From: a bacterium
GTDB taxonomy: Bacteria > Patescibacteriota > Minisyncoccia > JAUYLV01
Reading direction: 5' to 3'
Length of the DNA stretch: 64,000 nt
NCBI GenBank assembly: GCA_030649025.1
Contig: JAUSGO010000016.1
Span: forward strand, 4,851 to 68,850
This document shows, one piece after another, positions 1 through 15,671 of the stretch. The number at the start of each line of letters is the position of its first letter. The stretch's first letter is position 1. A model generated the notes under the pieces. That model was given only the letters and a program-made list of their open reading frames with translations. It did not search any database and was not told where the DNA came from. A program made the translations under genes and the position numbers.

Positions 1-189
1 TCATATACTCCATTGCAGGTTAAGCAGGCTGTTACCTCGTATGGGAGAGCAGAGAAAGGGCAAGTGCTGAAGATGATCATGCGCATACTTAAACTTACTT
101 CCCCGCCAGAACCAGACGACGCCGCCGATGCACTTGCCATAGCCCTGTGTCACGCAGCAATTCCCGAAGTCTATAAGAGATACAAGTAA
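1..189 (+). CDS. ruvC: Holliday junction resolvase RuvC, C-terminal fragment (5' end lies outside window)
   Basis: Frame-1 translation ...[42 protein letters not shown]... matches the conserved RuvC C-terminus (GxA.K.QV..MV..LL.L...[13 protein letters not shown]); TAA stop at 187-189. Confidence 0.8.
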
Positions 190-217
190 AGAGGCGTCCG
201 GTAGCTGCACGGAACAC

Positions 218-253
218 AAAAAAACTTTCCGATGCACATCGGAAAGTTTTTTT
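218..253. terminator. Bidirectional rho-independent terminator: A-run, 10-bp stem CTTTCCGATG/CATCGGAAAG, T-run
   Basis: Perfect inverted repeat flanked by AAAAAAA upstream and TTTTTTT downstream; lies just after ruvC stop. Confidence 0.6.
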
Positions 254-263
254 CTGATCCCTG

Positions 264-500
264 CTATTCCTCCGTCAGCTCTTCGTCATCATCCTCTTCT
301 TCCTCCGCGTCTGGAGATTCTTCTTCCAATTCCTCATCATCCGTGTCGTCTGCCGCATCATCATCGGCAGGCGCCGTTATTCCCGCATCATCGCTTCCCG
401 CATCATCGGGATACGCAAAGAGGTGGAATGCGTTTGCAAGAGCGAGTGCAAACATATGTGTAAGATTTAATGATAATCCTGCTGCGCGTGCAATGAGCAT
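264..500 (-). CDS. Hypothetical small protein with extremely acidic low-complexity C-terminal tail (D/E rich); coding status uncertain
   Basis: 78-aa ORF; opposite strand reads as a poly-Ser artefact; no clear RBS upstream of the ATG. Confidence 0.25.
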   Translation of the reverse strand: MLIARAAGLSLNLTHMFALALANAFHLFAYPDDAGSDDAGITAPADDDAADDTDDEELEEESPDAEEEEDDDEELTEE

Positions 501-585
501 GGGCCCAAAACAACGCTAGTACGCTCAATTGTATGCATGCAAACAACGCTGTCAAGTGGTGTCGGTGTGGAAAAATTCGTTAAGA

Positions 586-1875
586 CTATTTTGGCTTACG
601 TAAGCGGAAAAATTGTCTTTTGCCCACGCGCAACACTGCTCCGTCCTTGATATCTCCGGCCTGTATGCTTTTCCGCCAGTCTTTGTGCGTTATTCCGTCC
701 AGCTCCACGCCCCCCTGTTCCATGAGGCGCTTCGCTTCATTTTTTGAGGGAACGATATTCTCGCGCACAAGAAACTCCACCAAAACAAAACCAGGACCCG
801 TAAGAAGGATCTCCTTAATATTCTGCGGAGTCTCTTTTTTTTGAAAAACGCGCACAAATTCTTTTTCCGCGCCCTCGGCAGCCGAGAAGCCGTGATAAAG
901 CGTTACAACCTCCCGAGCAAGACGCATTTTTGCATCTTTGGGGGATAGACTTCCTCCGCGAAGCGCATCAATGATCTCTTGGATCTCGCTGTGCGGCAGA
1001 TGCGGACACGTAAGGTTGAAATACTCGTCTGTCACCGCATCATCTATAGCCATGAGCTTACCGTACATATCGTTCGGGGTATCCGTAATATTTATGATGT
1101 TACTCCACGAAGTGGACATTTTGCGCCCATCCGTGCCAACAAGCATCGGAGTGGTCAGCACATCCTGCGGTTCCTGACCGTAATACTTTTGTATTTCCCG
1201 CCCGGCATGGAGATTGAAAAGCTGATCCGCTCCGCCAACTTCTACATCCGCTTTTACGGCTACCGAGTCGTATCCCTGCATTAAGGGATAGAACAATTCC
1301 CGTATACTGATGTCCTCATTTTTTTGCAGGCGTTCTTTAAAATTATGTCGGGCAAGCATTTGTTGAACAGAAAAAATTTCCGCAAGCTTTGCGATTTCCT
1401 GAAGTTTAAGCTTGCCAAGCCATGTACTGTTGTAGCGAACCTCGGTCTTTTTCTTATCCAGTATCTTCCAGATCTGCGGCAAGTATCCTTTTAAATTTTC
1501 TACCACTTGTTTTTTGGTGAGGAACGGGCGCTTTGACAGTTTATCCGATGGGTCTCCTACTTGTGCCGTAAAATCGCCAATGATGAGGACAATCGTGTGG
1601 CCGAGGTCCTGAAATGACCGCAATTTCCAAAGAGAGATTGCCCTGCCGATGTGAATGCGCGGCCCCGTCGGGTCAATGCCGTGTTTGACGCGGAGTTTCT
1701 TTCCGGAGCGTAGTTTTTCCTCAAGATGTTCTTTTACTTCAACGCTGTGTACCTGCCCGATGAGCCTTAAGATGCTCTCATCCCGCGAGTACTTGACCGG
1801 CATGCCGACGCCATCCTTTCTTTTTAATCGAGTCTGGGATCGCATACGATGAGCTATGATATGAGTAGAAGCCAT
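586..1875 (-). CDS. tyrS: Tyrosyl-tRNA synthetase (class I, with C-terminal S4-like domain); true start probably internal Met near 1803
   Basis: GIDPTGPRIHIGR (HIGH-type motif) and KMSTS (KMSKS motif); ~400 aa plus S4-like C-terminus. Confidence 0.9.
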   Translation of the reverse strand: MASTHIIAHRMRSQTRLKRKDGVGMPVKYSRDESILRLIGQVHSVEVKEHLEEKLRSGKKLRVKHGIDPTGPRIHIGRAISLWKLRSFQDLGHTIVLIIGDFTAQVGDPSDKLSKRPFLTKKQVVENLKGYLPQIWKILDKKKTEVRYNSTWLGKLKLQEIAKLAEIFSVQQMLARHNFKERLQKNEDISIRELFYPLMQGYDSVAVKADVEVGGADQLFNLHAGREIQKYYGQEPQDVLTTPMLVGTDGRKMSTSWSNIINITDTPNDMYGKLMAIDDAVTDEYFNLTCPHLPHSEIQEIIDALRGGSLSPKDAKMRLAREVVTLYHGFSAAEGAEKEFVRVFQKKETPQNIKEILLTGPGFVLVEFLVRENIVPSKNEAKRLMEQGGVELDGITHKDWRKSIQAGDIKDGAVLRVGKRQFFRLRKPK

Positions 1876-2010
1876 AAATATTTAACAAGATCTCTCCGGT
1901 AAGAGTTTTTTAATTTTAGAAAAATGTTGATCCGTGATCACCCGTAAAATTCAATTCCACAAATTTGCACCCACCGGAAGATTTTGCCATTATCGATATT
2001 ATTCTTAGTG

Positions 2011-2060
2011 TGCGCCTTGTAGGGATTGAACCTACGGCCTCTTCCGTGTCGAGAAAGCGC
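2011..2060 (-). other. tRNA-like 3' fragment (anticodon-arm-like hairpin, T-arm GTAGG-TTCAATC-CCTAC, 3' acceptor strand AAGGCGC) without recognisable D-arm or full 5' acceptor; possible tRNA remnant or unusual tRNA
   Basis: Reverse complement gcgctttctcgacacggaagaggccgtaggttcaatccctacaaggcgca contains a canonical T-arm, but only ~50 nt can be folded into tRNA elements. Confidence 0.3.
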
Positions 2061-2086
2061 TCTTCCTGGACAAGTCCTATTTTTCA

Positions 2087-2134
2087 GAAACATGGTGCTT
2101 GCCCGCGAATCGTGAAGACTTTCACGATTCGCCC
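2087..2134 (+). repeat. Copy A of dispersed structured element: GAAACATGGTGCTTGCCCGC + 12-bp-stem hairpin GCGAATCGTGAA-GACT-TTCACGATTCGC + GCCC
   Basis: Perfect inverted repeat at 2105-2132; shares the GAAACAT(G/T)G..TTGCCCGC-hairpin-GCCC architecture with copies at 2325-2401, 15453-15501 and 18448-18540. Confidence 0.55.
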
Positions 2135-2148
2135 ACTTCGCTAAAACA

Positions 2149-2225
2149 TGGTGGGCGGCACAGGGGTCGAACCTGTTGCCTCGTCGATGTCAACGACGCG
2201 CTCTAACCAGTTGAGCTAGCCGCCC
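2149..2225 (-). tRNA. tRNA-Val (anticodon GAC), CCA encoded
   Basis: Manual cloverleaf fold of reverse complement: acceptor GGGCGGC/GCCGCCC, D-stem GCTC/GAGC, anticodon stem CGTCG/CGACG with loop TTGACAT, T-arm ACAGG-TTCGACC-CCTGT, discriminator A plus CCA; 77 nt. Confidence 0.85.
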
Positions 2226-2324
2226 TAAAAAATTTTAACAGAGAAAGCCAACGAAGCGCTCTGGTCTTGGGCAAGTTTCATTTTCCGGAAACATTGTACT
2301 TTCCCGAGAACCAATCATGTTTCG

Positions 2325-2401
2325 GAAACATTGAAGTTGCCCGCCAGATTCTCCACCGGAGAATCTGGCCCCGTGAAATGTTCTGCCAGAGCATTTCACC
2401 C
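2325..2401 (+). repeat. Copy B of dispersed structured element: GAAACATTGAAGTTGCCCGC + hairpin CAGATTCTCCACCGGAGAATCTG + GCCCC + hairpin TGAAATGTTCTGCCAGAGCATTTCA
   Basis: Two adjacent near-perfect palindromes; a partial upstream copy (CCGGAAACATTG) at 2285-2297; located in the 220-bp spacer between gatA and tRNA-Val. Confidence 0.55.
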
Positions 2402-2463
2402 ACCTAAGATAGTCGCTCGAGAATTTTAAATAGTATAGACCGGAAAATTTTAAGTTTCAAGCT

Positions 2464-3918
2464 TCAGACTTTAGCGTTACCCTCATACGCATCAGCAACG
2501 CGCAATATGGTAGATTCGTCGAAGTGTTTGCCCATGATCTGCAGGCCCACGGGAAGTTTCTTACCATCTCTTTCAACGTAGCCGCAATTAAGAGAAATGG
2601 CGGGAATGCCGGAGATGTTCGCAGATACGGTATAGACATCGGCAAGATACATGGAGACGGGATCGCTCTTTTCTCCGATTTTAAATGCGGGCGTCGGCGA
2701 AGTGGGGGAAACGATGACGTCATATTCTTCAAAAGCCTTTTTAAAATCTTCAACGATAAGCGTACGAACCTGCTGGGCTTTTTTGTAATACGCATCATAA
2801 TATCCTGCGGATAGAGCGTAGGTGCCAAGCATTACCCGCCGCCGTACCTCATTCCCGAATCCTCTTCCGCGTGATGCGGTGTAGACTTCGAAGAGATTTT
2901 TTGCGTCAGTCTTGATATCAGTTGAAGCGGAATAGCCATAGCGGATACCGTCAAATCTCGCCAGGTTGCTTGATACTTCGCAGGGCATAATGACGTAATA
3001 CACTGCAAGCGCCCAGTGTGTGTGCGGCAGGGACACTCCACCGATACGCGCACCAAGCTTTTCTAAGGTAAAAATTGCCTGCCGCACGGCTTTCTCAACA
3101 TCCGCATCAATGCCTTCGGCAAAGTATTCGTTGGGAATCCCTACCCGCAGACCCTTGATATCTCCCGTAAGGTCTCTGGTGTAGTGCGGCACCCGGTCGC
3201 GCGCCGTCGTTGCATCAAGCGCATCGTGGCCGGCAATAACCTCAAGAAGCGCCGCCGCATCCCAGACAGTTTTGGCTAAAGGGCCTATCTGATCAAGCGA
3301 TGAAGCCATGGCGATAAGACCGTGGCGGGATACGCGCCCGTAGGTAGGCTTTAACCCTACAACACCGCAAAATCCCGCAGGCTGCCGTACCGATCCTCCC
3401 GTTTCGGATCCTAGCGCCGCAATGGCCATGTCGGCGGCAACCGCTACGGCCGAGCCGCCGCTGGATCCTCCGGGAACCCTTGAAGTATCATGAGGATTTT
3501 TGGTTGGTCCGAACGCAGAGTTTTCCGTCGAAGCTCCCATGGCAAATTCATCCATATTTGTCTTCCCCAAAAATACCGCCCCTGCGTCGCGCAATCTTCC
3601 TATGGCCGTAGCATCGTATGCTGCAATATAATTTTCTAAAATGCGCGATGCGGCCGTGGTCTTTAGTTCCTTGATAAGTATGTTGTCTTTTACGGCGATG
3701 GGGATTCCGGTAAGAATTCCTCCCTCTTTTTTTTCTAAAACCTCATCGGCTTCACCAGCCATGCGAAGCGCTTCTTTCTTGGTGATTTCAAGATACGCAT
3801 TAAGCTCTGGATTTTTTTCTTGCGCGCGCGAAAGATGGTCCGCCGCAAGTTCTCTGGCGGAAATTTCCTTTTTGTGCAGCAGTTCTGATGCTGTTTTGAT
3901 GGTGAGATGTTCGAGCAT
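2464..3918 (-). CDS. gatA: Glutamyl-tRNA(Gln) amidotransferase subunit A
   Basis: Amidase signature [13 protein letters not shown]; 484 aa; followed upstream by gatC. Confidence 0.95.
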
Positions 3919-3934
3919 ACCCCGATACCAATAT

Positions 3935-3990
3935 ACGAATTGATGCGAATGAAACGAATATTCGTATCATTCGAATGCATTCGTTGATTT
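3935..3990. promoter_or_regulatory. Cluster of CGAAT/ATTCG motifs including perfect palindromes ACGAATATTCGT (3954-3965) and GAATGCATTC (3973-3982) in the gatC-gatA spacer
   Basis: Four CGAAT and three ATTCG repeats within 55 bp inside an operon spacer; candidate protein-binding or RNA-structure site. Confidence 0.3.
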
Positions 3991-4000
3991 GTGTCGCGTT

Positions 4001-4297
4001 TTATTCAAATACCGCCTTTACTTTGATATGGCCTTCTTCGCGCTGCGGCGCCTGACCTAGCAAATCTTCTGCGCTGGATTGCTCCGGCCGTTCCTCGGAC
4101 AAGGTGTCCTTCCGGAGGGCATTCACGATTCCCGTAACCTGCTTAGTCGGCTCAACCCCTTCCGTTTGTACCTCTCGCAGCTTTCCGACAAAATCCAAAA
4201 TAGTCCCAAATTCATTTTGGAGCTTCTCGAGCTCCGCATCATCAAGCCGGATGCGGGCAAGCTCAGCGATTTTTCTTACATCGTCCGTCGTAAGCAT
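4001..4297 (-). CDS. gatC: Asp/Glu-tRNA amidotransferase subunit C
   Basis: 98 aa; N-terminus MLTTDDVRKIAELARIRLDDAELEKL... typical of GatC; immediately upstream of gatA. Confidence 0.88.
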   Translation of the reverse strand: MLTTDDVRKIAELARIRLDDAELEKLQNEFGTILDFVGKLREVQTEGVEPTKQVTGIVNALRKDTLSEERPEQSSAEDLLGQAPQREEGHIKVKAVFE

Positions 4298-4318
4298 AGC
4301 TTCTCCAGCATATCAATT

Positions 4319-4344
4319 AAAAAACTCCCGCGCAAGGCGGGAAT
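4319..4344 (-). terminator. Rho-independent terminator downstream of ligA (stem CCCGC/GCGGG, U-run on minus strand)
   Basis: Minus-strand RNA reads ATTCCCGCCTTGCGCGGGAGTTTTTT, 25 nt after the ligA stop. Confidence 0.5.
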
Positions 4345-4368
4345 TACGTCATCGTTAAAGCAAAAAAT

Positions 4369-6441
4369 CTATTTGTTAAGTAATTTTAAAAATTCCTGCT
4401 CGGTAAGTATCGATACGCCGAGCGTTCTTGCTTTCTCGTACTTCGAGCCGGGATCCGCTCCCGAGACGATGTAGCTAGTTGATTTTGAAACCGACTCCGA
4501 AATATTACCGCCCGCTTGGCGGATTTTTTCTTTTGCCTCATCCCGCGTCATCGTTCCCAGACTCCCCGTAAGCACAAAAGTCTTGCCGGAAAGTTTTCCT
4601 CCGGCCCGATGCGTTACGGAATTTTCAATGACCACTCCCGCTTTTTTAAGTTCACGGATCACGCTGCGGTTTCGCGTGTTTTTAAACCACGCCACGATGC
4701 TCCGGGCCATCACTTCTCCCACTTCGTGCAACTCCAGAAGTTTTTCGTATGACGCGTCCTGGAGCGCCTCAATGCTGCCAAAGGCGTTGGCAAGTTCAAT
4801 TGACGTCTCTTCTCCCACGTGCCGGATGCCAAGTGCATACAAAAATCGGTGCAGCGGAATACGTTTTTTTACTTCAATGGCTGCGATGAGTTTTTTTGCC
4901 GACGTTTCGGCAAAACGTTCGAGCGGCAACAAATCACCAATGGTCAGCGTGAAAATATCCTGCCTGTCGGCAACAAGATTCTGTTCCAGAAGCTGGTCAA
5001 TGATCTTTGGCCCCATGCCGACAATGTCGAAGGCCGCGCGCGAGACGAAATGATACAACTTCTCACGCTCCTGCGCGGCACAGCGCGGATTGGAGCATCG
5101 GTGAATAGCCTCGTCGTGACCCCTTACCACGCGCGAGAGACAGACCGGACAGACTTTTGGCATGTGAAAAAGCCTTTCTTTTCCCGTACGCATGCGCGTC
5201 AGCACCACCTTCACGTCGGGGATAACGTCTCCGGCTCTCCCCACGATAACCGTATCCCCGATGCGCACATCAAGCCTTTGTATCTCGTCCTCATTGTGTA
5301 GTGTGGCACGCGAGACCGTAACTCCGCCAACGTCCACGGGCCTTAAGTGCGCTACGGGAGTAAGTGCACCCGTACGGCCGACCTGCACCACAATATCCTC
5401 CACCACGGTGGTAGCCTCGCGTGAGACAAATTTATATGCGATGCCGCCTCTAGGGGTTTTCCCAACCACACCAAGGCGCAAGAGCACTTCATTGCGGTTC
5501 ACCAAGACCACGATACCGTCTATTTCATAATCGAGTTTTTCGCGGATCTTTTTTACATGTCCGTGGAATTGCTCTATCTCTTTCAAGAAACCGAGACGTT
5601 TATTGTGGGGTCCCGTTTTAAATCCAAGAGCCTTCAGGATAAAATGTTCCTCTTCATGTGTTTTCTGCCCCATGTTGGTTATGAGCGCGTACGCAAAAGA
5701 GTCAAGATGACGCGAAGCCGTAATCCTGGGATCAAGCTGCCTCACGGAGCCGGCAGCGACGTTTCTGGGGTTGGCATATGGCTCTTCCCCCCTCTCCTTA
5801 CGTTCCCGGTTGAGTGCGGAAAAAGCCTTTTTGGGCATAAACACTTCTCCTCGCACTTCCAGAGTTTCCGGCCAATGCTTTTCCAGGAACCGGGAAATGT
5901 GAAAAAGCTTCATGCGCCGCAATTCGGAAATGACATCTTGTTTTTCGCCAAGCTTCAGAGGGATAGCTTCAACCGTTTTCAGATTTTGAGTAACATTTTC
6001 TCCGATCTTCCCGTCTCCACGCGTGGATCCCTCAACAAAAAAACCGTTCTTATAGACCAGTGAGATTGCCAGCCCATCAATTTTAAGTTCTACATAATAA
6101 TCTCCAAGAAGCGGGCGCGTGATAGGAGAAAGAAGTTTTGCATTCCGTTCTTCCCACTCTTTCATCTCCTCTGGGGAAAACGCATCGGTAAGCGAGAGCA
6201 TGGGGACCCCGTGTCTGATTTTTTCGAACTTTCCAAGCGCCCTGCCGCCGACGCGCTGGGTCGGCGAATTCGGCGTGATGAGTTCCGGAAACTGCGCCTC
6301 GAGCATCTCCAGTTCATGCTTGAGCGAATCCAGGGCTGCGTCGGAGATCTCTTGCCTATCTAGGGCATGGTAAAGGTATCGGTGGTGATCGATCTCCACC
6401 CGCAGTTTTTCTATGCGTTTTTTAGCATCGGCCTTAGTCAT
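4369..6441 (-). CDS. ligA: NAD-dependent DNA ligase LigA
   Basis: 690 aa; adenylation motif KIDGLAIS, Zn-finger cysteines, C-terminal BRCT-like region. Confidence 0.95.
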   Translation of the reverse strand: MTKADAKKRIEKLRVEIDHHRYLYHALDRQEISDAALDSLKHELEMLEAQFPELITPNSPTQRVGGRALGKFEKIRHGVPMLSLTDAFSPEEMKEWEERNAKLLSPITRPLLGDYYVELKIDGLAISLVYKNGFFVEGSTRGDGKIGENVTQNLKTVEAIPLKLGEKQDVISELRRMKLFHISRFLEKHWPETLEVRGEVFMPKKAFSALNRERKERGEEPYANPRNVAAGSVRQLDPRITASRHLDSFAYALITNMGQKTHEEEHFILKALGFKTGPHNKRLGFLKEIEQFHGHVKKIREKLDYEIDGIVVLVNRNEVLLRLGVVGKTPRGGIAYKFVSREATTVVEDIVVQVGRTGALTPVAHLRPVDVGGVTVSRATLHNEDEIQRLDVRIGDTVIVGRAGDVIPDVKVVLTRMRTGKERLFHMPKVCPVCLSRVVRGHDEAIHRCSNPRCAAQEREKLYHFVSRAAFDIVGMGPKIIDQLLEQNLVADRQDIFTLTIGDLLPLERFAETSAKKLIAAIEVKKRIPLHRFLYALGIRHVGEETSIELANAFGSIEALQDASYEKLLELHEVGEVMARSIVAWFKNTRNRSVIRELKKAGVVIENSVTHRAGGKLSGKTFVLTGSLGTMTRDEAKEKIRQAGGNISESVSKSTSYIVSGADPGSKYEKARTLGVSILTEQEFLKLLNK

Positions 6442-6544
6442 GGAACAGATAACAACGCTACGCTAAACAGGTAACAAATAGAAACACCTATGCTAAGCAA
6501 ATCACAAGACCTGTTATTTGTTTTTTGCTGCCTGCTTGTTGTTC

Positions 6545-7210
6545 TTACGGCACATCGATGTACCTCTGAGAAATTGTTGTCTGAACCCGAACATCCTGCC
6601 GCTCTTTAAAATCTTTTTGGGTAATCGATTGCACATGAAGTACGATAGTGGCGCGCGGCTGACAAAGATCGAATGCCGTGCCGGGACAGGCGCTTCCCAA
6701 AGGAGGCTGTCCTACGCCGCGAATGAGAAAACCGGAGTCATCCGTCAAAAGCGCGACTTCCTGGCCGTTCAGGATCTGGACGTTTGGATTAGTATCATCA
6801 CACGGGTCCTGGGTAAAATCTATATCATTGACCAGCCGGTGCAAATTTGCAAAAGGAAACGGTATCGCTACGGGATATTCTTTAATACAATAGCTTATCG
6901 GCTTGTTATCGGAACTTCGAATGATATCCAGCTCCTTGCTGTACGTATCCGCGGGAGAATTATTGCCGTTATCGGTGCAAAAACGAACCCCGCCGGTATT
7001 CCCGCAAATGGTGGAGGCACGGATCTCGCGCGATAACGTATCCATGATAATGCGCGCATTGCTTGAGGCCTGCTCAAACGCAATGACTTTTCTCTGGCTG
7101 ACGATTGAATCAAGGAAAACAACCGAAATCAGCGTGAGCACGACGATCATGAGCGTCGCCCCAACCAACGTTTCGATCATGGTAAAACCCTTTTGACTGA
7201 TCAATTTCAT
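6545..7210 (-). CDS. Type IV pilin-like protein (class III prepilin signal, minor pilin/pseudopilin-like)
   Basis: N-terminus MKLISQKG|FTMIETLVGATLMIVV: G-F-T-x-I-E prepilin peptidase site plus hydrophobic helix. Confidence 0.75.
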   Translation of the reverse strand: MKLISQKGFTMIETLVGATLMIVVLTLISVVFLDSIVSQRKVIAFEQASSNARIIMDTLSREIRASTICGNTGGVRFCTDNGNNSPADTYSKELDIIRSSDNKPISYCIKEYPVAIPFPFANLHRLVNDIDFTQDPCDDTNPNVQILNGQEVALLTDDSGFLIRGVGQPPLGSACPGTAFDLCQPRATIVLHVQSITQKDFKERQDVRVQTTISQRYIDVP

Positions 7211-7225
7211 TCAAATTATCCAATG

Positions 7226-7277
7226 ACGAATTACGGATTACGGATTAATTTAATTCGTAATTCGCAATCCGTAACTT
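7226..7277. promoter_or_regulatory. Array of 7-mer repeats with dyad symmetry (GAATTACGGATTACGGATTA ... TAATTCGTAATTCGCAATCCGTAA) immediately upstream of pilin gene 6545-7210
   Basis: Direct ATTACGG x2 on the left arm and inverted CCGTAAT/CGTAATT copies on the right arm; a related array lies at 21531-21607. Confidence 0.4.
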
Positions 7278-7300
7278 AAAATTTACAATCTGCTCCAGTA

Positions 7301-7969
7301 TTAGAGGAAGCTCCCCAAATAATCCACCCATTTTGTGAGACGGCTCTCCAAAAGAATGCAGTTGGCATCCGGACATATTACGGGTTCCGTGTCCGAGTTC
7401 CAGAATACTTTTATTTTCACATATATCTCCGCGCATTCGGTCGAGCAGCCGACGGGATATTTTTCTATTCTTACTGCACGCCGGAAACCGGAATCACTCC
7501 ATCCTGCGGTGCTGCAGGCGCCAGTGACGCAAAGATTCGCATAAAAACCCGTTGCGTCTTGAACGTAGACCTGCTGCCATTCTTTCGCCGCAGAGCAACA
7601 GGCCACGATCCAGCCGCTTGAAATATCATCATTGTCTACAAGCCGGATGCGCGTCTGAAATCCCACCGGACCCGTTGCGGGAATATCGTCATTCCATTGG
7701 GGATTTGTCGGCGGAATGCCGGTTTGCTTGATCGCATCGGATATTTGCAGCAGGGTGTTGTCTCGGATATTACGCACAACCTCAATTCCCTCCTGGGCAA
7801 GGTTCGCAGCGATGATCTCCTGCCGAACGGCGGGAGAGATATGAATAGTCTTTGAGATAACGATAAAAGCGCCGGTTGCACCGACAGTAAGCACAAAAAG
7901 CGCGATAATGGTTTCGATGAGGGAAAAACCATTTTTCGCATGTGGGTAGCGAATCTTTGTGTTGTTCAT
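7301..7969 (-). CDS. Type IV pilin-like protein (PilV/minor-pilin-like)
   Basis: N-terminus ...HAKNG|FSLIETIIALFVLTV class III signal peptide motif. Confidence 0.75.
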   Translation of the reverse strand: MNNTKIRYPHAKNGFSLIETIIALFVLTVGATGAFIVISKTIHISPAVRQEIIAANLAQEGIEVVRNIRDNTLLQISDAIKQTGIPPTNPQWNDDIPATGPVGFQTRIRLVDNDDISSGWIVACCSAAKEWQQVYVQDATGFYANLCVTGACSTAGWSDSGFRRAVRIEKYPVGCSTECAEIYVKIKVFWNSDTEPVICPDANCILLESRLTKWVDYLGSFL

Positions 7970-8004
7970 GAAATTCAGAAGAGCATCCGTCTTTTGAGAA
8001 GCCC

Positions 8005-11000
8005 TTAGGGAGCCGCAATGCAGGCGGATGAGCCATACGACGAGTCAACTTCGGGAGTTGTCGCTCGCAGACGGTAGCAGGCAAACGTGCCGCCGGGAGT
8101 ATTCCCTATATTATCCGAGTATGATGTCTGGTTCGTGATATTGATCAGTTCGGTAAAGTTTGAACAGCTTGGTCCGATGACCGTGCATCGCTCGATCTTG
8201 TATCCGGTATTATTTACCGAATTATCCGTCCAGAAAAGGTTTATCTTTTTCCCGGGACCCGTGGTGAACGAGAGGCCGCTGGGCGCAAGAAGCCAGGTTC
8301 GGAGAGAGAACGTACTTGAGTACGATGAATACGCGCCTGTGGTGGCCGCACGCATGCGATAGCAATATTTAGCTTCTTGGCTAAGACCGCTATCGGTGAT
8401 ACTGCGTGCGCCGGTAGTAGCCGTACCGGCAATGGTCGCAACGACCGCAAAACTCACCGCAGAACAGTTCGCATCTCCGCGCTCAAGATACGTATTCATC
8501 TCTCCCAGAGAATTATCTTGCCAGTTTATCTGCGCGGCGGTGAATCCGGTCGAGGTTGTTGTTGCCAGAATCGACGGCGTATTGGGCGGCGTGAAGACGT
8601 TTCCCGACGCATTGGAGCATGTGGAAACGCCGATGGCATCCACTGCTTTGATGCAATACTGATATGCATTGCCTTCCGTTACCGATGTATCGGCATAAGT
8701 AAATGTGCTGCCGCCGATGTCCGCGCCGACTTGCGCACCGCTTGATGCGGGGTTACACGCTGCGCCGCTACAGCGAATGACTCTGAATGCGGTCGGTACG
8801 CCCCAGGTATCGGTGAAATTCGAAAGCCAGAAAAGATCAATGCGAGTACTGGAGACGACCGTAGGAGGCGTATTCAGTGTCGGGGTTTTGGGCACAACGT
8901 CTGGCGTGGTAAATGTCACGCAATTAGAAGGAGCGGAGTCTCCGGTCGCATTTACCGCTTTTACCCAATATGCGTATGCGGTCTTCGGCCTTGTTGCCGG
9001 AGACATTACATCTATATAACTTCCCGGCTGAGGCCCGGGAGTTCCGGTGCCAATAAGCGTCGATACAGCCGGAGCGCCACTACACAAAGCGCCATTGAAC
9101 CGCTCTATTTTGACATTCTGGATAGTGCTTAAAGGAGGGTTGGTCCACTGTAAATTCACCTGTGACGTTGCGCCAGAGCCCGTGCCGGAGCTTGTGGGAG
9201 CCGGAAGCGCCTGAAGATTCGTTGGCGCACCGGCATAGGTCGTTGCGTAAAGCGTATTTGAACACGAAGAAGAATAGGGCCAGGAGGCATTTTGCCCTAT
9301 GATGCAATATCCGTATGTTGTGCCTTCAGAAAGCGTCGTATCTGAAGCCGTAAAATCCGGAGATGTTCCCGTATACGTAAGGGTCGTGTCAACGGGCGTG
9401 CAGGCACTTCCCGTACAGCGCCTTATGATAAAACTTGTGGCAACCTTGAACTTGCCGCTTGTCGGCGAATCAGCGGCGATGTCATGCCAAGAAAGATTAA
9501 TCCGGGTATCCGATACGACAACGGGAATGGCAAGTAGTGGAGGATACGGCGCCTCATCTTCCGTTTTTGAGTTTGCTTCCCTGTAAGCCCAGGCCGAGGG
9601 ACCCGAAGCATTGATTGCGCGCACGCGATAGCAGTAAAGCGTATTTGGCGTCACGCCAAGAGGACTTTGTGAATCCGGTGGACATCCGGGTCCGGGAGGT
9701 GACGGATAACGAGTTGCGTCGCAATCATTGTAATTCGTATCGTCTTGTGGGGTGGTGACAAGGGAAGAGAAAACGGCCGTCACATCGCATGTTCCGGGAG
9801 CAACAAGGGTTGATCGCTGAAGCTCGAATGAGGATTCCGTGGCGATCGAGGGGAAATTCCCTCCCCAGTTAAGAAATACTTTCCTTGAAGATGCGTTAGC
9901 CGAGGTCCAGAGAGGAGCTGGCGGAGATGTAAGAGTGCTTGCGGTATTGCTGTAGCCGGAAGGACCTGTCGCATTTGTCGCACGTACTTTGTAACAATAC
10001 GTGGTCTCGGCGGACAAGCCCGTGTCCGTATAAGTGCCGGTATTTGCTGAAACAATGATCGTCTGAAGCGTTGATGCGCAACCCGGCGCCATGCGCACGA
10101 TCTCAAAATTCGCCTCGTTGACCGCATTGTCGATCCAGGAAATTTTTATTTCTGACACGGAAAGAGGCAGGGCAGAGAGACCGGAGGGGTCTGCCGGGAC
10201 AGAGGGATAACACTGTCCTATTGCCGTGGGGCCCGGACATCCTGGCACGGTACAGCAGATATCACCCAATGCGTCATTCGCACAAAGCCCTCCGATGCCG
10301 CAGGCGATAGTCCCCCCGCAACCGTTCGACCAATACCCGCAAACCGCGCCTCCGGAAACTATATTTGCGCAAAAAAACGGCACGCAGGGCTTGGAAAGCA
10401 CCTGTCCGCTCCTAATCTCAATGCGGCCGGAGCTTGAAACGCGGATTTGGCGAAGTATTGCCGTGTTGTCGGAAAATTCCAGAGGAAAATCGGTATAAGA
10501 AAGGGTTGAGCTTGCGGTCGGATCTGCTACATGGAGCACAAAGGTGGCGGGGTCTGGCGGTTCGAAATACACGTCATCAAGCACCGCCCCCAACACAAAA
10601 CGAACTTTCCCGGCTTCGGGAAGCAGGAAACTTTTCACGGTTGTTGTGGAAACGTAAGATGTCGCCGGGCATGAAGCGGGATTATTTGTGTTGTCAAAAC
10701 ATTCGCGCTGGCCCTTCCATTGTCGGGAATACCTTGAAAGATTGACGCCGCAGGGCACTGACGTTGAGGAAGGAATCTTCGTATACAAAATATAAGAATT
10801 TGGATCTCCCGTCGCGGGATTGGGTGCGTGAATTCCAAAACCGCACGGTGGAAGCCCGCCGAACTGCGTTGGATCGCTTGAAAGCGCTAATGCCTGCGCT
10901 GTGCGGATGTCCTGCGCAAGCTTATTTGCCGCCCGCTCCATGGAGCCAACGGACCCCACGCGTCTGTAGCTTGTTAAAACCGTTGCGCCGATAAGCATCG

Positions 11001-11127
11001 AGATGCCAATAACCACCAAAATTTCCATGATCGTGAAACCATTGTTGCGAACTATTATTGCTTTATCTTTTATATACTCCTGGTGCATAGCGAAATTTTG
11101 GAAGAATATTATTACCTTCAAATTCAA
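8005..11127 (-). CDS. Giant (1040 aa) pilin-like protein: prepilin N-terminus fused to multiple fibronectin type III-like repeats; candidate pilus-associated adhesin
   Basis: N-terminus ...NNG|FTIMEILVVIGISMLI; repeated FN3 hallmarks YCYRVRAINASGPS, YCYKVRATNATGPSGYS, YCYRMRAATTGAYSSYS, ACYRLRATTPEVDSSYGSS. Confidence 0.7.
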   Translation of the reverse strand: MNLKVIIFFQNFAMHQEYIKDKAIIVRNNGFTIMEILVVIGISMLIGATVLTSYRRVGSVGSMERAANKLAQDIRTAQALALSSDPTQFGGLPPCGFGIHAPNPATGDPNSYILYTKIPSSTSVPCGVNLSRYSRQWKGQRECFDNTNNPASCPATSYVSTTTVKSFLLPEAGKVRFVLGAVLDDVYFEPPDPATFVLHVADPTASSTLSYTDFPLEFSDNTAILRQIRVSSSGRIEIRSGQVLSKPCVPFFCANIVSGGAVCGYWSNGCGGTIACGIGGLCANDALGDICCTVPGCPGPTAIGQCYPSVPADPSGLSALPLSVSEIKISWIDNAVNEANFEIVRMAPGCASTLQTIIVSANTGTYTDTGLSAETTYCYKVRATNATGPSGYSNTASTLTSPPAPLWTSANASSRKVFLNWGGNFPSIATESSFELQRSTLVAPGTCDVTAVFSSLVTTPQDDTNYNDCDATRYPSPPGPGCPPDSQSPLGVTPNTLYCYRVRAINASGPSAWAYREANSKTEDEAPYPPLLAIPVVVSDTRINLSWHDIAADSPTSGKFKVATSFIIRRCTGSACTPVDTTLTYTGTSPDFTASDTTLSEGTTYGYCIIGQNASWPYSSSCSNTLYATTYAGAPTNLQALPAPTSSGTGSGATSQVNLQWTNPPLSTIQNVKIERFNGALCSGAPAVSTLIGTGTPGPQPGSYIDVMSPATRPKTAYAYWVKAVNATGDSAPSNCVTFTTPDVVPKTPTLNTPPTVVSSTRIDLFWLSNFTDTWGVPTAFRVIRCSGAACNPASSGAQVGADIGGSTFTYADTSVTEGNAYQYCIKAVDAIGVSTCSNASGNVFTPPNTPSILATTTSTGFTAAQINWQDNSLGEMNTYLERGDANCSAVSFAVVATIAGTATTGARSITDSGLSQEAKYCYRMRAATTGAYSSYSSTFSLRTWLLAPSGLSFTTGPGKKINLFWTDNSVNNTGYKIERCTVIGPSCSNFTELINITNQTSYSDNIGNTPGGTFACYRLRATTPEVDSSYGSSACIAAP

Positions 11128-11172
11128 AATTTAAAACTTTCCACAAATTTTTCTTTTTTATTTTTGCGTTCC

Positions 11173-12096
11173 TTACCACCTGAACGGCGCGAGATGCACC
11201 GACTTTAGTATAGCATCTCCGAAGAAAAAAGCGGCGATTGCGGCGGGAGCCAAAAACGCTCCGAACGGCACTTCCGATTTCAACGTCTTTTTATTGACCA
11301 GGATGAGCGCCAAACCGACAAGAGAACCGCTGAAAGACGCGAGCAGAAGCGCAACAAGAACATTCCAAAATCCAAGAAACAATCCCATGAAGACTGCGAG
11401 CTTCACGTCGCCAAGTCCCATCCAGACACCACGAGAAATAATGATGAGTAAAAGAAAAAATGCCGCCCCGACCAAAGATCCTGCCACGTTTGGCAAACTG
11501 CAATTCACTGTTGGAATTCCGCACGCAAAGATAAAACGGTTGGCGAGAATGAGACACGAAAAGAGCGCAATAGCGGGCAACATGACACGGTCGGGGATGA
11601 GAAAATGGCGTACGTCCGTTACAAATATGACCAAAAACACGCAGATAGCGAATAACGCATAGCTGATGGCAAGAATATTTGTAACATCGGGAAAAAGTCC
11701 GGTTATAGAGAATTGTGTTGCTGCTTCAGAAACATTCGGCAAAAAACCAAGGGGCTCTGTTGCGCGCTTCTCCATCCACCAATATGTAAAACTAAAAAGA
11801 ACGCCGCTTGACAGCTCCACAAGAGGATATTGAAGGGAGATGCGTTCTTTGCACGAACGGCACCTGCCGCCAAGGACCACAAAGGACCATAACGGAATGA
11901 GTTCGTACCACTCGAGAATTCGCGCGCAATGACGGCAGTGGGATCGCCTCTGCACCACCTCCTCGCCTTCCGGAATGCGCCAGATGAGCACATTAAGGAA
12001 GCTTCCCACAATAAGGCCGAGAAGGAATAAGAACACCAGAATAAACCATAGGGGCATCATAAACATAAGTATACCCGTTAGGAGAAGCTCGACCAA
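11173..12096 (-). CDS. pilD: Prepilin peptidase / N-methyltransferase PilD (A24 family)
   Basis: N-terminal Zn-binding CRHC...CRSC tetracysteine, multiple TM helices, conserved GDVKL aspartate region; 307 aa. Confidence 0.9.
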   Translation of the reverse strand: MVELLLTGILMFMMPLWFILVFLFLLGLIVGSFLNVLIWRIPEGEEVVQRRSHCRHCARILEWYELIPLWSFVVLGGRCRSCKERISLQYPLVELSSGVLFSFTYWWMEKRATEPLGFLPNVSEAATQFSITGLFPDVTNILAISYALFAICVFLVIFVTDVRHFLIPDRVMLPAIALFSCLILANRFIFACGIPTVNCSLPNVAGSLVGAAFFLLLIIISRGVWMGLGDVKLAVFMGLFLGFWNVLVALLLASFSGSLVGLALILVNKKTLKSEVPFGAFLAPAAIAAFFFGDAILKSVHLAPFRW

Positions 12097-12231
12097 GGGA
12101 TAGTGGGGGATTTATTTTTCGAAAACTCTGTTTGAGCAATCAGGTTCTCGCTACCGAATATACCGTAAAACTTTCGAAAGAGCCGCAGATGCCGGCGGTT
12201 TCCACGAATCAAGTATTCGGGCAACAACTCG

Positions 12232-12258
12232 ATAAAAAAACTGCCCCATGGGCAGTCC
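12232..12258 (-). terminator. Rho-independent terminator (ACTGCCC-ATGG-GGCAGT plus U-run on minus strand) after gene 12266-12916
   Basis: Minus-strand RNA reads ACTGCCCATGGGGCAGTTTTTTT just after the stop codon. Confidence 0.55.
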
Positions 12259-12265
12259 GGTATTT

Positions 12266-12916
12266 TTATAAAGCCGCTTGCAAAGGAAGAACAAATATGT
12301 GAAAACAATTGGCGTTGATCTCCTCCGTAGCATCAATAAGTCCGGCCATTTCGTAGGATACCAGCAATTCGCGCATCCAAAGACGCTCCTTCTGCGTCAT
12401 GGGCTTGAGAGAAATATCAAACGCCGCGCCGGTGAGATGAAGCGAACGCCTATCTCCGTGAGGAGAAGCTGCGCTTGGATTCTTCTTGCGCTGAGCGGTC
12501 TTCGATTGCACCGTCTCGACGAGCGAGGTGATTTTGATGCGTTTTTGAAATTGCGCGTGGTGCTGGCGCGCGATATCCTCAAGAAACCTGCCTGCTCCGG
12601 GACGGAGATACCGCAAAGGCCGCGGCACCTTACTAAGAAAGTATGTCCGGGTTTTTCGCGGAACAGAAACAAGGAGTTTTAATCCGACGTGCTCCCCTAA
12701 GACTTTCGCATTTTCCATGCGCCACCAGCCGGCGTCGTTTGCGATACGGTTCTGACACAAAAGCAAGTCCTGAGATCCCTTCAGTTCATTGGGACGGGTA
12801 TCGGAAGCTATCGATGATTTCCGCGCGACCTTGCCTTTCTTCTGCATGACTGCGCTGCCATTCGAAGAAAAAAACAAAATTATAAAGAACGCCGTGACGA
12901 TAAACCTGAAAGTCAT
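12266..12916 (-). CDS. Membrane-anchored peptidase M15-like protein (VanY/D-Ala-D-Ala carboxypeptidase superfamily)
   Basis: N-terminal hydrophobic anchor; motif SPHGDRRSLHLTGAAFDIS fits the S-x-H-x-x-G-x-A-x-D zinc-binding signature of M15 peptidases. Confidence 0.5.
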   Translation of the reverse strand: MTFRFIVTAFFIILFFSSNGSAVMQKKGKVARKSSIASDTRPNELKGSQDLLLCQNRIANDAGWWRMENAKVLGEHVGLKLLVSVPRKTRTYFLSKVPRPLRYLRPGAGRFLEDIARQHHAQFQKRIKITSLVETVQSKTAQRKKNPSAASPHGDRRSLHLTGAAFDISLKPMTQKERLWMRELLVSYEMAGLIDATEEINANCFHIFVLPLQAAL

Positions 12917-12931
12917 TCTTCCTTCCCTCCC

Positions 12932-13126
12932 TTACTTTTCGGTATCGGTATGGCTTTTCCCATGCTTGGCAAGAACCGACAAATCAACATCGAGACGGCT
13001 TTTTTTATCGGCAAGCAGTGCCATGCCAAGAATAATGAGCACAACGCCGGGTATAATGGGAAGAAAGATCCCAAGAATTCCGACAAGAATCAGCAGATAT
13101 GCTTTTTGACGATAGCTAAGCTTCAT
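12932..13126 (-). CDS. Small hypothetical membrane protein (64 aa, two predicted TM segments)
   Basis: ORF with hydrophobic core LLILVGILGIFLPIIPGVVLIILGMALLA; function unknown. Confidence 0.35.
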   Translation of the reverse strand: MKLSYRQKAYLLILVGILGIFLPIIPGVVLIILGMALLADKKSRLDVDLSVLAKHGKSHTDTEK

Positions 13127-13146
13127 AGAGAATATAATACCATGCG

Positions 13147-13614
13147 TTAGAAATTTAGAGAAGGCCGTTGAAGCGCGCGCTCAGAAGCGTCGAGTGCCTC
13201 ATTTACCAGGCGATCTGCCTGGATGTTTTTTTCTCTTGGAATGTGCGTAAATGTCACGCCGCCAAAATCCATCTTGAGATTCCGCACCGCAAGATATAAT
13301 TTCCCTATATGTTCTTCGGTTATTTTATAACGATCGGAGAGCTGCTCCACCACAAGCTGGCTGTCTATCCGAAACTCTACGGAGAATTTTGAGGACGCCT
13401 TCAGGCCCCATAATGCTTTTAACTTCTTCAACGCGAAAATAACGGCCTCGTACTCCGCTTCGTTGTTGGTGCGCTCTCCCAGATACTGGCCATAGGTCTT
13501 AAGAACCTCTCCTTTTTCATTTTGCACCACAATGCCCAGCGCGGCGGGACCCGGGTTTCCACGGCTGCCGCCATCGGTGAAAACGATAAATTTTTCTGAA
13601 GAAAGTTTCTGCAT
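13147..13614 (-). CDS. rnhA: Ribonuclease HI family protein; start placed at internal Met (MQKLSSEKFIVFTDGG) 4 nt after recJ stop
   Basis: RNase H catalytic motifs FTDGGSRGNPGPAALG, NNEAEYEA, DSQL, HIPREKN..AD. Confidence 0.8.
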   Translation of the reverse strand: MQKLSSEKFIVFTDGGSRGNPGPAALGIVVQNEKGEVLKTYGQYLGERTNNEAEYEAVIFALKKLKALWGLKASSKFSVEFRIDSQLVVEQLSDRYKITEEHIGKLYLAVRNLKMDFGGVTFTHIPREKNIQADRLVNEALDASERALQRPSLNF

Positions 13615-13618
13615 ATAA

Positions 13619-15427
13619 TTAGGGGGTGCGGGAGCCGGGGTCAAGGTCCACCAGCTGCAATTCAATGGCGTCTCTGCCGTTCCAAAAGTTTTGGGAAAGC
13701 TTTGCAATGACGTCCACCGTGCTCCCACGCGAAAGTTCTTTTATCCGCCCGCCCAGTCCAAATCCGATGGCCTCGATGTTTGAGGCCGGCCTTGACGATC
13801 TGGCAGAAGAAAGAAGGCGCAATTTAAGATGCCGCTCTCCGTTTCCAACCGCGCGCACATACGCTATGGCAAGCCCTCTAAGAAGGAATTTCGGCTCGAT
13901 ATTGTCTTCGCCGAAGGGGGCAAGTCTTTGCACTGTAGCATAGGTTTTCTCGTTTATATCAACGTGTGAAAGCTCGGCGTCAACAACGAGTGCATCTTCT
14001 TGTGCGGACGCTCCCTCAGTTCGCAGAACCTTTTCTCCCGCCCGTAAAAATATTTCTCGGACACGATCCAGATGTTCCGGCTTTGTGGTAAATCCCCCGG
14101 CATGAGGATGGCCGCCGGCATCGGAAAAAAGTTCCGAATGGGCATGTACGGTCTCTACGATGTTAAAAGCGCCGAAAGCCCTGGCATTGCCGACAACGCG
14201 TCCGCCTTCTTCGTTCTCAACGGCCAAAATAACAGGTCGCGCCACTTCCTGCATGACGCGTTGGGCTGCGAGCCCCAGAACGCCGGGAACCCAGCTGGAG
14301 GAGCTTTCGAATACCACTGCGGGTTTTTGAGAATATTTTGAAACACGTTCAAGAACCTCTGCCACAATGATTTCGGTAACGAGCTGGCGCTCTCGATTCC
14401 GTTCATCCAGATGCCTGATGAGCAGCGGGATTTCTTCTTCTCTGTCGGTCGTAAGCAGACGGAAGCTGATGGAGGCATGTGCCATGCGTCCCATTGCGTT
14501 CAGCCTCGGGATGAGCGAAAAATGAACATCGCGAACAGAAAATCCTTCTTTTAGTTCGCAGAATTCAATAAGCGCACGAAGTCCCGGGCGTTGAGTTTTT
14601 GCAAGAACATCAAGTCCTTCTCGCACCATTGCTCTATTTTCATTCTTGAGCGGCATGGAATCGGCAAGCGTGGCAAGGGCGACAAGATCAAGAAAGCTTA
14701 TAGCTTTTAGCTTATAGTTTATAGGAGAAGATGCGGTATTGGTATGTGAAAGAAGGGCGCATGCCAGCTTAAAGGCAACGCCGGTGCCGGCAAGCCCCGA
14801 AAACGGATAGCCCGACCCCGGATCTTTCGGATTCAAAATCGCGTAGGCAGGAGGGAGTTTGGCGGGCACGCTGTGGTGGTCCGCAATAATAACGTCAATT
14901 CCCCTTTCATTCGCCCAAGCTATTTCCTGAACATCGGTAATACCGCAGTCAACCGTGATGATAAGTTTGGCGCCTTCCTCACAGAGTTCTTCCAGATGCA
15001 TCATCGACAAACCATAACCCTCCTTATTGCGATCAGGAATATGTACGTTCAGAAGATGCTCATATCCTAGATCCCGAAAGACCGTAAAAAGTATTGCGCT
15101 GCCGCACACGCCATCACAGTCATAATCCCCCCAAATAACGATCTTTTCTTTATTTGCAAATGCCGTATAAACCCGACTAACCGCTTTTTGCATGTCCGAA
15201 AATAAAAAAGGGTCGTGAAGATCCCGATCGATGCTCGGATTCAGAAAATTTTCTGCATCTTCGGCGTTCCGAATGCCCCTGTTCCATAAAAGTTGAGGAA
15301 TGAGGGGCGAAGCGTCTTGTAATTCATTAAAAAATTCACTAGGCGCTTTCGGTGCTACGGTCCAGATCGATTTCATAGTATTGCTTGGGGAAACCCATTT
15401 CAACGCCTTAGAAGGGCGCTGCGGCAC
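13619..15427 (-). CDS. recJ: Single-stranded-DNA-specific exonuclease RecJ (true start possibly Met at 15376)
   Basis: DHH family motifs DYDCDGVCGSAILF and IIADHHSVP; DHHA1-like C-terminal region; 602 aa. Confidence 0.9.
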   Translation of the reverse strand: MPQRPSKALKWVSPSNTMKSIWTVAPKAPSEFFNELQDASPLIPQLLWNRGIRNAEDAENFLNPSIDRDLHDPFLFSDMQKAVSRVYTAFANKEKIVIWGDYDCDGVCGSAILFTVFRDLGYEHLLNVHIPDRNKEGYGLSMMHLEELCEEGAKLIITVDCGITDVQEIAWANERGIDVIIADHHSVPAKLPPAYAILNPKDPGSGYPFSGLAGTGVAFKLACALLSHTNTASSPINYKLKAISFLDLVALATLADSMPLKNENRAMVREGLDVLAKTQRPGLRALIEFCELKEGFSVRDVHFSLIPRLNAMGRMAHASISFRLLTTDREEEIPLLIRHLDERNRERQLVTEIIVAEVLERVSKYSQKPAVVFESSSSWVPGVLGLAAQRVMQEVARPVILAVENEEGGRVVGNARAFGAFNIVETVHAHSELFSDAGGHPHAGGFTTKPEHLDRVREIFLRAGEKVLRTEGASAQEDALVVDAELSHVDINEKTYATVQRLAPFGEDNIEPKFLLRGLAIAYVRAVGNGERHLKLRLLSSARSSRPASNIEAIGFGLGGRIKELSRGSTVDVIAKLSQNFWNGRDAIELQLVDLDPGSRTP

Positions 15428-15452
15428 TTATCCGGGACAGATTTCATGCATT

Positions 15453-15501
15453 GAATACATTGAAGCTGTCCGCGAAATGCTCCCCCGGAACATTTCGCCC
15501 C
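15453..15501 (+). repeat. Copy C of dispersed structured element: ACATTGAAGCTGTCCGC + hairpin GCGAAATG-CTCCCCCGGAA-CATTTCGC + CCCC
   Basis: Same leader motif and GAAATG..CATTTC hairpin as copies at 2325-2401 and 18448-18540; lies between recJ start and the tRNA-Arg 3' end. Confidence 0.5.
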
Positions 15502-15513
15502 CGCACCATCTAG

Positions 15514-15585
15514 TCCCCCCGGAGGGAATCGAACCCCCATCAACGCCTTAGAAGAGCGCTGCTTTATCCGTTAAGCTACGGAGGG
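15514..15585 (-). tRNA. tRNA-Arg (anticodon TCT), CCA not encoded
   Basis: Manual fold: acceptor CCCTCCG/CGGGGGG (one G-U), D-stem GCTT/AAGC, anticodon stem GCGCT/GGCGT (two terminal G-U) with loop CTTCTAA, T-arm GGGGG-TTCGATT-CCCTC, discriminator A; 72 nt. Confidence 0.6.
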
Positions 15586-15614
15586 AGACGCATGATTCTT
15601 TTTTATATTATATG

Positions 15615-15641: not shown

Positions 15642-15671
15642 GAGCGTAAAACTTAAGCTCACGCCGAATCA

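Follow-up and report, generated by a model that had tools for sequence, protein, structure and literature searches.

The 64,000-nucleotide stretch analysed here (positions 4,851 to 68,850 of contig JAUSGO010000016.1; hereafter the window) carries a family of short units that fold into two adjoining hairpins. The family is a small structured repeat of unusual two-hairpin build that strikingly prefers the GG in tRNA D-loops, and on balance it seems to be a small, non-autonomous, non-coding insertion element that depends on its structure and belongs to one rare Patescibacteria (Parcubacteria-like) lineage. Six units (A, B0, B, C, D and D') lie in the window, all within 2-19 kb, and seven come from relatives (one each in the loci L042, L043, L123 and L099, and three plus a partial fourth in L045), which gives a lineage total of 13 units in ~219 kb, 11 of them full and two consisting of the first hairpin only.

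Four of the window loci (A, B, C and D) had been reported in an initial annotation made from the letters alone. All four are real and were found where it placed them; B0 and D' are two further units that it did not list. When the pattern GAAACATNNNNSTTGCCCGC was searched with up to three mismatches, nine matches were obtained against 1.5 expected, a number reached by none of 100 shuffles, and the matches with 0-2 mismatches are exactly A (2087), B0 (2288), B (2325) and D (18533, minus strand). The family also supplies four of the 11 strongest short-loop hairpins of the 64-kb window.

Anatomy of the two-hairpin unit

Each unit consists of a hairpin I (hpI) and an abutting hairpin II (hpII), with a core of ~67 nt, or 79 nt when the conserved borders are included. 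The stem of hpI, 7 bp long (GGGNNNN/NNNNCCC), encloses a conserved loop of ~24 nt (..TTTC-N-GAAACATTG.A) whose consensus reads ..CATTTTC-N-GAAACAT(T/G)G.A; the three outer pairs of the stem are invariant, and substitutions in the four inner ones are compensated. In hpII, a stem of 12 bp that closes with G-C/C-G carries a loop of 3-4 nt; the sequence of hpII covaries freely, and CC follows it. Stacking the copies of the window and of the relatives gives the layout CCT-GGGNNNN, loop, NNNNCCC, with the complementary 5' arm of hpI ~24 nt upstream of what had been described as a leader. That leader in fact comprises two parts of hpI, the 3' half of its loop and the 3' arm of its 7-bp stem; the 5' arm (CCTGGGNNNN) had been overlooked. 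The hairpin stems reported at that time are 12 bp long once the GC in GCCCGC and that in GCCC are counted.

In the window, unit A (2068-2132, plus strand; 43.8 bits and E 6e-9 with the covariance model described below) has the hpI arms GGACAAG (2068-2074) and CTTGCCC (2098-2104) around a loop at 2075-2097, and an hpII at 2105-2132 with a 12-bp stem and the loop GACT; CC stands at 2065-2066 and 2133-2134. Unit B0 (2269-2305, plus) consists of hpI only (GGGCAAG ... CTTTCCC), in tandem with unit B (2306-2369, plus; 81.6 bits), in which the 5' arm of hpI is degenerate, the loop contains GAAACATTGAA, the 3' arm GTTGCCC lies at 2336-2342 and hpII at 2343-2369. An extra, solo hairpin of the hpII type, with no assigned strand, follows at 2373-2399 (TGAAATGTTCTG cc AGAGCATTTCA). 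Unit C (15434-15498, plus; 71.6 bits) is degenerate, with an hpI stem GGACAG/CTGTCC, CC at 15432-15433, and an hpII at 15472-15498 with one C.A mismatch; its degeneracy consists of one additional loop base and one mismatch in a stem. Unit D (18489-18553, minus; 88.3 bits) has its hpII at 18489-18515 and the hpI arms GGGCAAC/GTTGCCC at 18516-18522 and 18547-18553. It fills the gap upstream of pilM, as the annotation had said; the second hairpin attributed to it is the hpII of D' (18415-18479, plus; 84.3 bits), a separate unit placed tail-to-tail with D, with hpI arms GGGCGTC/GACGCCC at 18415-18421 and 18446-18452 and hpII at 18453-18479.

The arrangements are mosaic. Tandem hpI hairpins occur in B0-B and in L045 b0-b, D and D' form an inverted doublet, and comparison with L123 shows that in L045 the 5' arm of an hpII contains an additional hpI. 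Orientation relative to the genes is mixed, with 8 of 10 units antisense when read on the strand of the annotation. A third helix closing both hairpins was considered and discarded, as only D and L099 show one.

Covariation of the stems

The stems of hpI differ between copies by paired substitutions. Besides those of C, D and D', the stems are GGGCAAG/CTTGCCC in L045c (also in A and B0, with one mismatch each), GGGCGAG/CTCGCCC in L042, GGGCAGC/GCTGCCC in L045 b0 and L099, GGGTTGC/GCAACCC in L045 b, and GGGCAGT/ACTGCCC in L043. The compensatory changes pointed out at the outset, CAGATTCTCC/GGAGAATCTG versus GATATGCTCC/GGAGCATATC and those of the TGAAATG.TCT hairpins, proved correct. In a raw MAFFT alignment of seven seed copies, 91% of the positions of the stems are paired and 11 of the 19 pairs have changed on both sides. 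A covariance model built from these seven copies, as the annotation had suggested, recovered A, C, L042a and a new copy in L043, and later the copy in L123. In the resulting 11-copy alignment 92.9% of the cells are paired and 15 of the 19 pairs have changed on both sides, which none of 500 shuffles matched, and slid controls are 33-42% paired; this alignment was fitted to the model and is thus biased toward the structure, and the raw seven-copy result agrees with it. The model is also specific, since in 714 kb of unrelated loci picked for leader-like motifs its sole match was the true copy in L099. Folding z-scores range from -3.6 to -6.7 (the latter for D) on both strands. That structure is kept rather than sequence, and that the palindromes are not random, is therefore strongly supported, as had been proposed.

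In the near-identical pair A and L042a the differences in hpII are uncompensated. Of the non-Watson-Crick pairs, four favour the reverse strand and two the forward one, which gives no strand signal. The family illustrates that strong covariation is by itself no proof of a functional RNA.

Insertion into tRNA D-loops

Five units interrupt decayed copies of tRNA genes (Val, Arg and Lys) directly after the G18G19 of the D-loop, and each interrupted copy adjoins an intact tRNA of matching identity. Three copies had been said to sit next to tRNA genes, and A, B and C are indeed flanked by tRNA-Val or tRNA-Arg; this understated the case, as units lie inside the D-loop of decayed copies. ARAGORN places tRNA genes at 2149-2225 (intact tRNA-Val(GAC), minus strand; 62.5 bits with the Rfam tRNA model), 15513-15585 (intact tRNA-Arg(TCT), minus, also found by the Rfam scan) and 48571-48645 (tRNA-Met).

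Unit A splits a decayed tRNA-Val(GAC) on the minus strand. Its 5' D-arm fragment (TAGCGAAGTGG, 2133-2143) abuts the hpII of A, and its 3' part, from the 3' strand of the D-stem to the acceptor, lies at 2011-2064, so that the order in the sense of the tRNA is TAGCGAAGTGG, unit, AGAGCG with the anticodon arm, T arm and acceptor (30/43 identity). The tRNA model matches this remnant with 18.7 bits over model positions 10-63, a match that does not include the acceptor. The B cluster is flanked by the tRNA-Val-like 5' fragment GCGACTATCTTAGGTGG (2400-2416, minus; 12/17) and, on the far side of B0/B, by the 3' fragment AGAGCGCTTCGTTG (2249-2262, minus), identical at 13 of 14 nt to positions 22-35. 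At C, a decayed tRNA-Arg(TCT) runs from the D-loop CGGATAA onward (15375-15433, minus) and is identical to the intact gene at 27 of 31 nt over the anticodon arm. In L043, CCGTCCTAAGCTCAATTGG (17/19 identical to tRNA-Lys positions 1-19) leads straight into hpII, hpI is followed by AGAGCAGC (8/8, tRNA-Lys positions 21-28), and the intact tRNA-Lys comes ~30 nt further on. In L042, GGGTGGCTAGCTTAAGTGG (16/19 identical to tRNA-Val positions 1-19) likewise leads into hpII. Around D and D', an Rfam scan at E<=10 detected no tRNA remnants.

The T arm of the remnant beside A (GTAGGTTCAATCCCTAC) is identical to the tRNA-Val of the L044 type, and the intact gene of the window is of the L042/L043 type; being of different allele types, the two are not recent duplicates. 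Two tRNA-Val(GAC) alleles occur at the same site downstream of gatA, in L043 (4447-4523) and in L044 (4094-4168), and in the window one allele is intact and the other is present only as the remnant at 2011-2064. Near C, the longest recJ open reading frame (GTG at 15427; 15300-15427 in the window) overruns the tRNA-Arg remnant; the RecJ profile begins at residue 40, which puts the probable true start ~100 nt further downstream.

Borders, empty sites and a host element

Every one of the 11 full units is bordered on either side by GG (CC on the strand of the annotation). Along the coding direction of the tRNA, all 11 upstream flanks end in GG, seven of them in TGG, and the downstream flanks start with (A/C)GGAA; on the other strand an insertion reads ..T-CC-element-CC... 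The unit ends (..TCC-GGG.. and ..GC-CC..) are not inverted repeats of each other, and the sole border repeat is the GG/CC, a 2-bp sequence compatible with either a target duplication or a crossover core. A favoured target is G18G19-N-A21 of the DNA coding for the D-loop.

Several sites that carry a unit in one genome are empty in another. tRNA-Val directly follows gatA in L043 and L044; the gap upstream of pilM, filled by D in the window, is only 11 nt in L044; and downstream of recO a gap of 428 nt with a unit in L123 corresponds to empty gaps of 38 nt in the window, 132 nt in L124 and 71 nt in L125. We infer that the copies are movable rather than ancient duplications.

Two units, those of L123 and L045b, are embedded in an element of 230-245 bp with the boundaries GTCATTGCGAG...CTCGCAATGAC (L045 12193-12423; L123 8866-9109), which also exists as an empty 100-bp form (L045 18044-18143; L124 6170-6269). 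This host is a separate palindromic miniature inverted-repeat transposable element (MITE) of ~100 bp with terminal inverted repeats (TIRs) and the centre TCATTTTAAAATGA, found in the relatives and absent from the window. The empty form reads AGATT-G-CCACGCTCC where the filled one reads AGATT-TCC, element, CCACGCTCC, which places the unit between AGATT-G and CCACGC. Read on the other strand, GAGCGTGG^CAATCT at this site is similar to AATTGG^CAGAGC in the tRNA.

Comparison with known elements

Elements of the IS607 family have no TIRs, produce no target duplication, end in GG and insert at GG, with (G)GG preferred (PMC6188088). The present units resemble them in lacking TIRs, in having GG at border and target, in their (G)GG-rich targets, in the lack of any duplication beyond the 2-bp core, and in the imperfect inverted repeats that IS607 elements have near their ends (PMC6188088). 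Absence of TIRs, GG termini and insertion at GG are thus all found here, with the caveat of a changed base after the right GG. They differ from IS607 in being geneless and 67 nt long, with no serine recombinase in the lineage DNA examined. The TnpA of IS607 elements is a serine transposase with a MerR-like HTH and a resolvase domain that binds subterminal motifs of its element. To our knowledge, covarying hairpins are not a requirement of this enzyme, and we know of no description in that family of a preference for tRNA D-loops or of an odd base after the right GG.

The likeness to repetitive extragenic palindromic (REP) sequences and their relatives (BIME, REPIN-RAYT, PATE) lies in the short intergenic hairpins, which stand alone, in tandem or as inverted doublets, in the mosaic arrangement, in the lack of TIRs and in the presumed mobilization by a trans-acting, hairpin-recognizing enzyme. 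Unlike REPs, the units have no GTAG-type head, consist of two unlike hairpins and have an apparently low copy number, and their stems vary around a conserved loop, which is the reverse of the REP pattern. No Y1_Tnp/RAYT match was found among the open reading frames of the window or in the annotations of the related loci. PATEs derived from IS200/IS605 carry similar subterminal hairpins at their two ends and insert 3' of a fixed tetra- or pentanucleotide; the present units have hairpins at both ends that are unlike one another, and their target is only GG(N)A.

Classical MITEs (Correia/NEMIS, RUP, ERIC) are likewise small, non-coding and structured, show insertion polymorphism and nest in other repeats. 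The units share small size, lack of coding capacity and insertion polymorphism, with empty sites in L043, L044, L124, L125 and the window; in contrast to MITEs, their core has no TIRs and their border repeat is only 2 bp. The element that hosts two of them, bounded by GTCATTGCGAG...CTCGCAATGAC, is of the classical kind and the hairpin unit is not. The non-canonical tRNA introns of Thermoproteales and the group I introns in tRNA genes of Patescibacteria are also short inserts at sites outside the anticodon, including the D-loop, and the host phylum is rich in introns; the difference is that here the hosts are decayed bacterial pseudo-copies and that units also occur outside tRNAs. Rfam gave no match to a tRNA-intron family or group I fold, and a bulge-helix-bulge was not detected, without explicit modelling. 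Finally, integron attC sites are recombination sites that keep a hairpin structure and not a sequence, as these units do, but the units have no R/L boxes (RYYYAAC...GTTRRRY), cassette arrays or intI, and their neighbours are housekeeping genes. A literature search returned nothing relevant on D-loop-targeted repeats, on REPs in Patescibacteria or on the end sequences of the MITE.

Proposed mobilization and alternative explanations

Of the two options raised initially, a REP- or MITE-like family of DNA hairpins fits best, given the presence or absence of units at orthologous sites, the interruption of tRNAs and of a MITE, the occurrence in both orientations, the doublets, the nesting and the lack of an Rfam match. 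If these units are insertion elements, a trans-acting enzyme would read the folded hairpins together with the loop motif, which would account for covarying stems around a fixed loop. Pairing could then persist while the sequence drifts, through selection acting on the lineages that propagate and not on each resident copy; the uncompensated hpII changes between A and L042a are in line with this. Insertions into tRNA genes would survive only in redundant copies, which would decay beside the intact gene. The GG-to-GG borders, free of TIRs and duplications, suggest a 2-bp-core exchange such as that of the IS607-family serine transposases; a hairpin-reading HUH/Y1 enzyme of the IS200/IS605 or RAYT type would be the alternative.

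A number of points weigh against an insertion element. Copies are few for the ~219 kb and patchy, with six at 2-19 kb of the window and zero at 19-64 kb. No transposase, integrase or recombinase occurs among the 51 open reading frames of the window or the called genes of the related loci, so that the mobilizing enzyme is postulated. An intact tRNA lies beside every interrupted copy, which survivorship accounts for only in part, since small genomes rarely contain tRNA genes duplicated in tandem. A, B and L042a could moreover descend from one ancestral insertion into tRNA-Val, which would reduce the tRNA events from five to ~3. When the base that follows the right GG is compared with an intact paralogue, three of four cases show A in place of C, C or T, which a clean 2-bp exchange does not predict. 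Lastly, a serine recombinase works on duplex DNA and does not by itself explain the pairing of the hairpins; having no obvious need for them, it leaves the HUH/Y1 enzyme as an alternative.

The other initial option, functional structured RNAs kept for their fold and loop motif, be it as a family of small RNAs or as an element for cis-regulation or processing, appears improbable. Strong covariation, the conserved loop, stable folds, the agreement in direction of 8 of 10 copies, taken on the reverse strand, with the neighbouring genes, and an RNase III gene in the window would all suit it. It is opposed by the inconsistent orientation, by unrelated neighbours with no consistent gene association, by the empty orthologous sites, by copies that break tRNA copies and sit in a MITE, by the uncompensated changes between A and L042a, and by the lack of a strand bias in G.U versus A.C pairs (4 versus 2). 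The Rfam scan proposed for a known RNA family returned, at gathering thresholds over the window, tRNAs only; at E<=10, scans of 1950-2480 and 18200-18620 gave weak chance matches and tRNA, and thus no credible RNA family. We judge it very unlikely that the hairpins are transcription terminators or mRNA-stabilizing structures whose flanks are shared by descent. All copies are intergenic, hpII is strong and GC-clamped, and several copies lie just past gene ends; however, neither hairpin is followed by a T/U tract on either strand, the units are absent from the 38 terminator-like sites in 1-20000, canonical hairpin-plus-T terminators are used elsewhere in the window, and neither the conserved hpI loop nor the D-loop insertions would be explained. 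Further candidates were rejected as well: a T-box leader upstream of tyrS (no Rfam match, and unrelated neighbours at the other copies), a likeness of TTTC-N-GAAA to parS (TGTTTCAC-GTGAAACA) or to the CodY box (AATTTTCWGAAAATT) (wrong half-site spacing, only the right half conserved), a sigma-54 or sigma-70 promoter within the unit (no fitting hexamers), a hammerhead or other small ribozyme (core motifs missing, no Rfam match) and a tRNA-like minihelix with CCA (no CCA after hpII).

The tRNA context admits two further explanations. Integrases that target tRNA genes classically leave partial tRNA duplicates, and the units could be attachment-site (att) arms left after the loss of larger integrative elements. 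An intact tRNA beside a partial copy is the hallmark of such integrases, the pseudo-Val at A represents the other allele (L044 type) than the intact gene, and the window contains four copies of a tRNA-Met 3' end with 173-bp repeats. Yet tRNA halves lie on both sides of the units, split at the D-loop, which indicates simple insertion and no attL/attR pair; one and the same 67-nt unit is found at Val, Arg, Lys, MITE and non-tRNA sites alike; the neighbourhood contains no integrase; and integration into tRNA genes is known from the anticodon loop, the T-loop and the 3' end. We regard this origin as unlikely. Still less credible is an intron-like insert that enters the D-loop of the tRNA transcript, is copied to DNA and recombines at the tRNA locus to give an intact and an interrupted copy in tandem. 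The G18G19 loop is single-stranded in RNA, interrupted and intact copies do stand in tandem, and Patescibacteria are unusually rich in introns in tRNA genes (PMC13011429). However, 67 nt is far below any known self-splicing ribozyme, Rfam gave no ribozyme-family match, the interrupted tRNAs are decayed and would not be spliced to a working tRNA, no reverse transcriptase was seen, and the MITE target need not be transcribed.

Beyond the insertion element that we favour stands a bolder and more doubtful proposal: the units might represent a new minimal class of mobile element in Patescibacteria, of ~67 nt and two hairpins, with neither gene nor inverted repeats, that homes to the universally conserved G18G19(N)A21 in the DNA coding for tRNA D-loops and to look-alike GG sites and is mobilized by an enzyme recognizing hairpin shape and loop motif, or else invades tRNAs at the RNA level. 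If the units move, they would be among the smallest structured mobile DNAs known, for which two hairpins, a loop motif and a GG core would suffice, and the conserved GG in the D-loop of tRNAs would offer a harbour of a new type, safe or unsafe. Patescibacteria usually have each tRNA in a single copy, and insertion into the D-loop would be a possible source of tRNA gene turnover in their very small genomes. The family also accounts for tRNA-like fragments and for long intergenic gaps in which gene callers place spurious open reading frames.

Host and distribution

The genes flanking the units include tyrS, gatA, gatC, ligA, recJ and the pilM operon. Their nearest named relatives are Parcubacteria/Patescibacteria (50-62% identity), and closer relatives (67-87% identity) are few short contigs (L042-L046, L119-L125). 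The covariance model finds nothing further in the window and no unit in L044, L119-L122, L124 and L125. A scan of a genome collection with GAAACATNNNNSTTGCCCGCN{18,30}GCCC gave 40 singletons from unrelated taxa, none with a hairpin and thus due to chance; a metagenome scan with TTTCN{1,2}GAAACAYNGNNNYTGCCCG returned 70 loci, and L099 alone among them is a true copy; a viral scan gave two chance matches; and in a blastn search no phage or plasmid sequence matched the D-D' doublet. That the public scans add only L099 points to a family of a rare lineage. As the collection scans were keyed on the leader only, variants such as those of L043, L123 and D' escape them, and the family may be wider.

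Other features of the window

Predicted genes between 586 and 42437 are all on the minus strand, and orientation switches from 42557. GC skew is negative to ~40 kb and then flat, which may mark a replication or operon boundary by dnaE; as a measure of replication-strand bias of the units, it was uninformative.

The tRNA-Met 3' end (CGAATCCAACCCCCGCAAC) occurs four times within 48571-49689 (at 48627, 48800, 48974 and 49671), and the repeats at 48627-48765 and 48800-48938 are 100% identical with a spacing of 173 bp; they look like the stacked att-type repeats of integrative elements, with no integrase nearby. About 45 nt upstream of the tRNA-Met lies a perfect 18-bp palindrome (48489-48526; TTCTCATTCTCACATTCT..AGAATGTGAGAATGAGAA). 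IleRS (27843-31310, minus) carries a His_Phos_1 histidine-phosphatase domain inserted at residues ~499-669; the insert is common to all the IleRS homologues listed, which are mostly Patescibacteria where named, and is thus a trait of the lineage.

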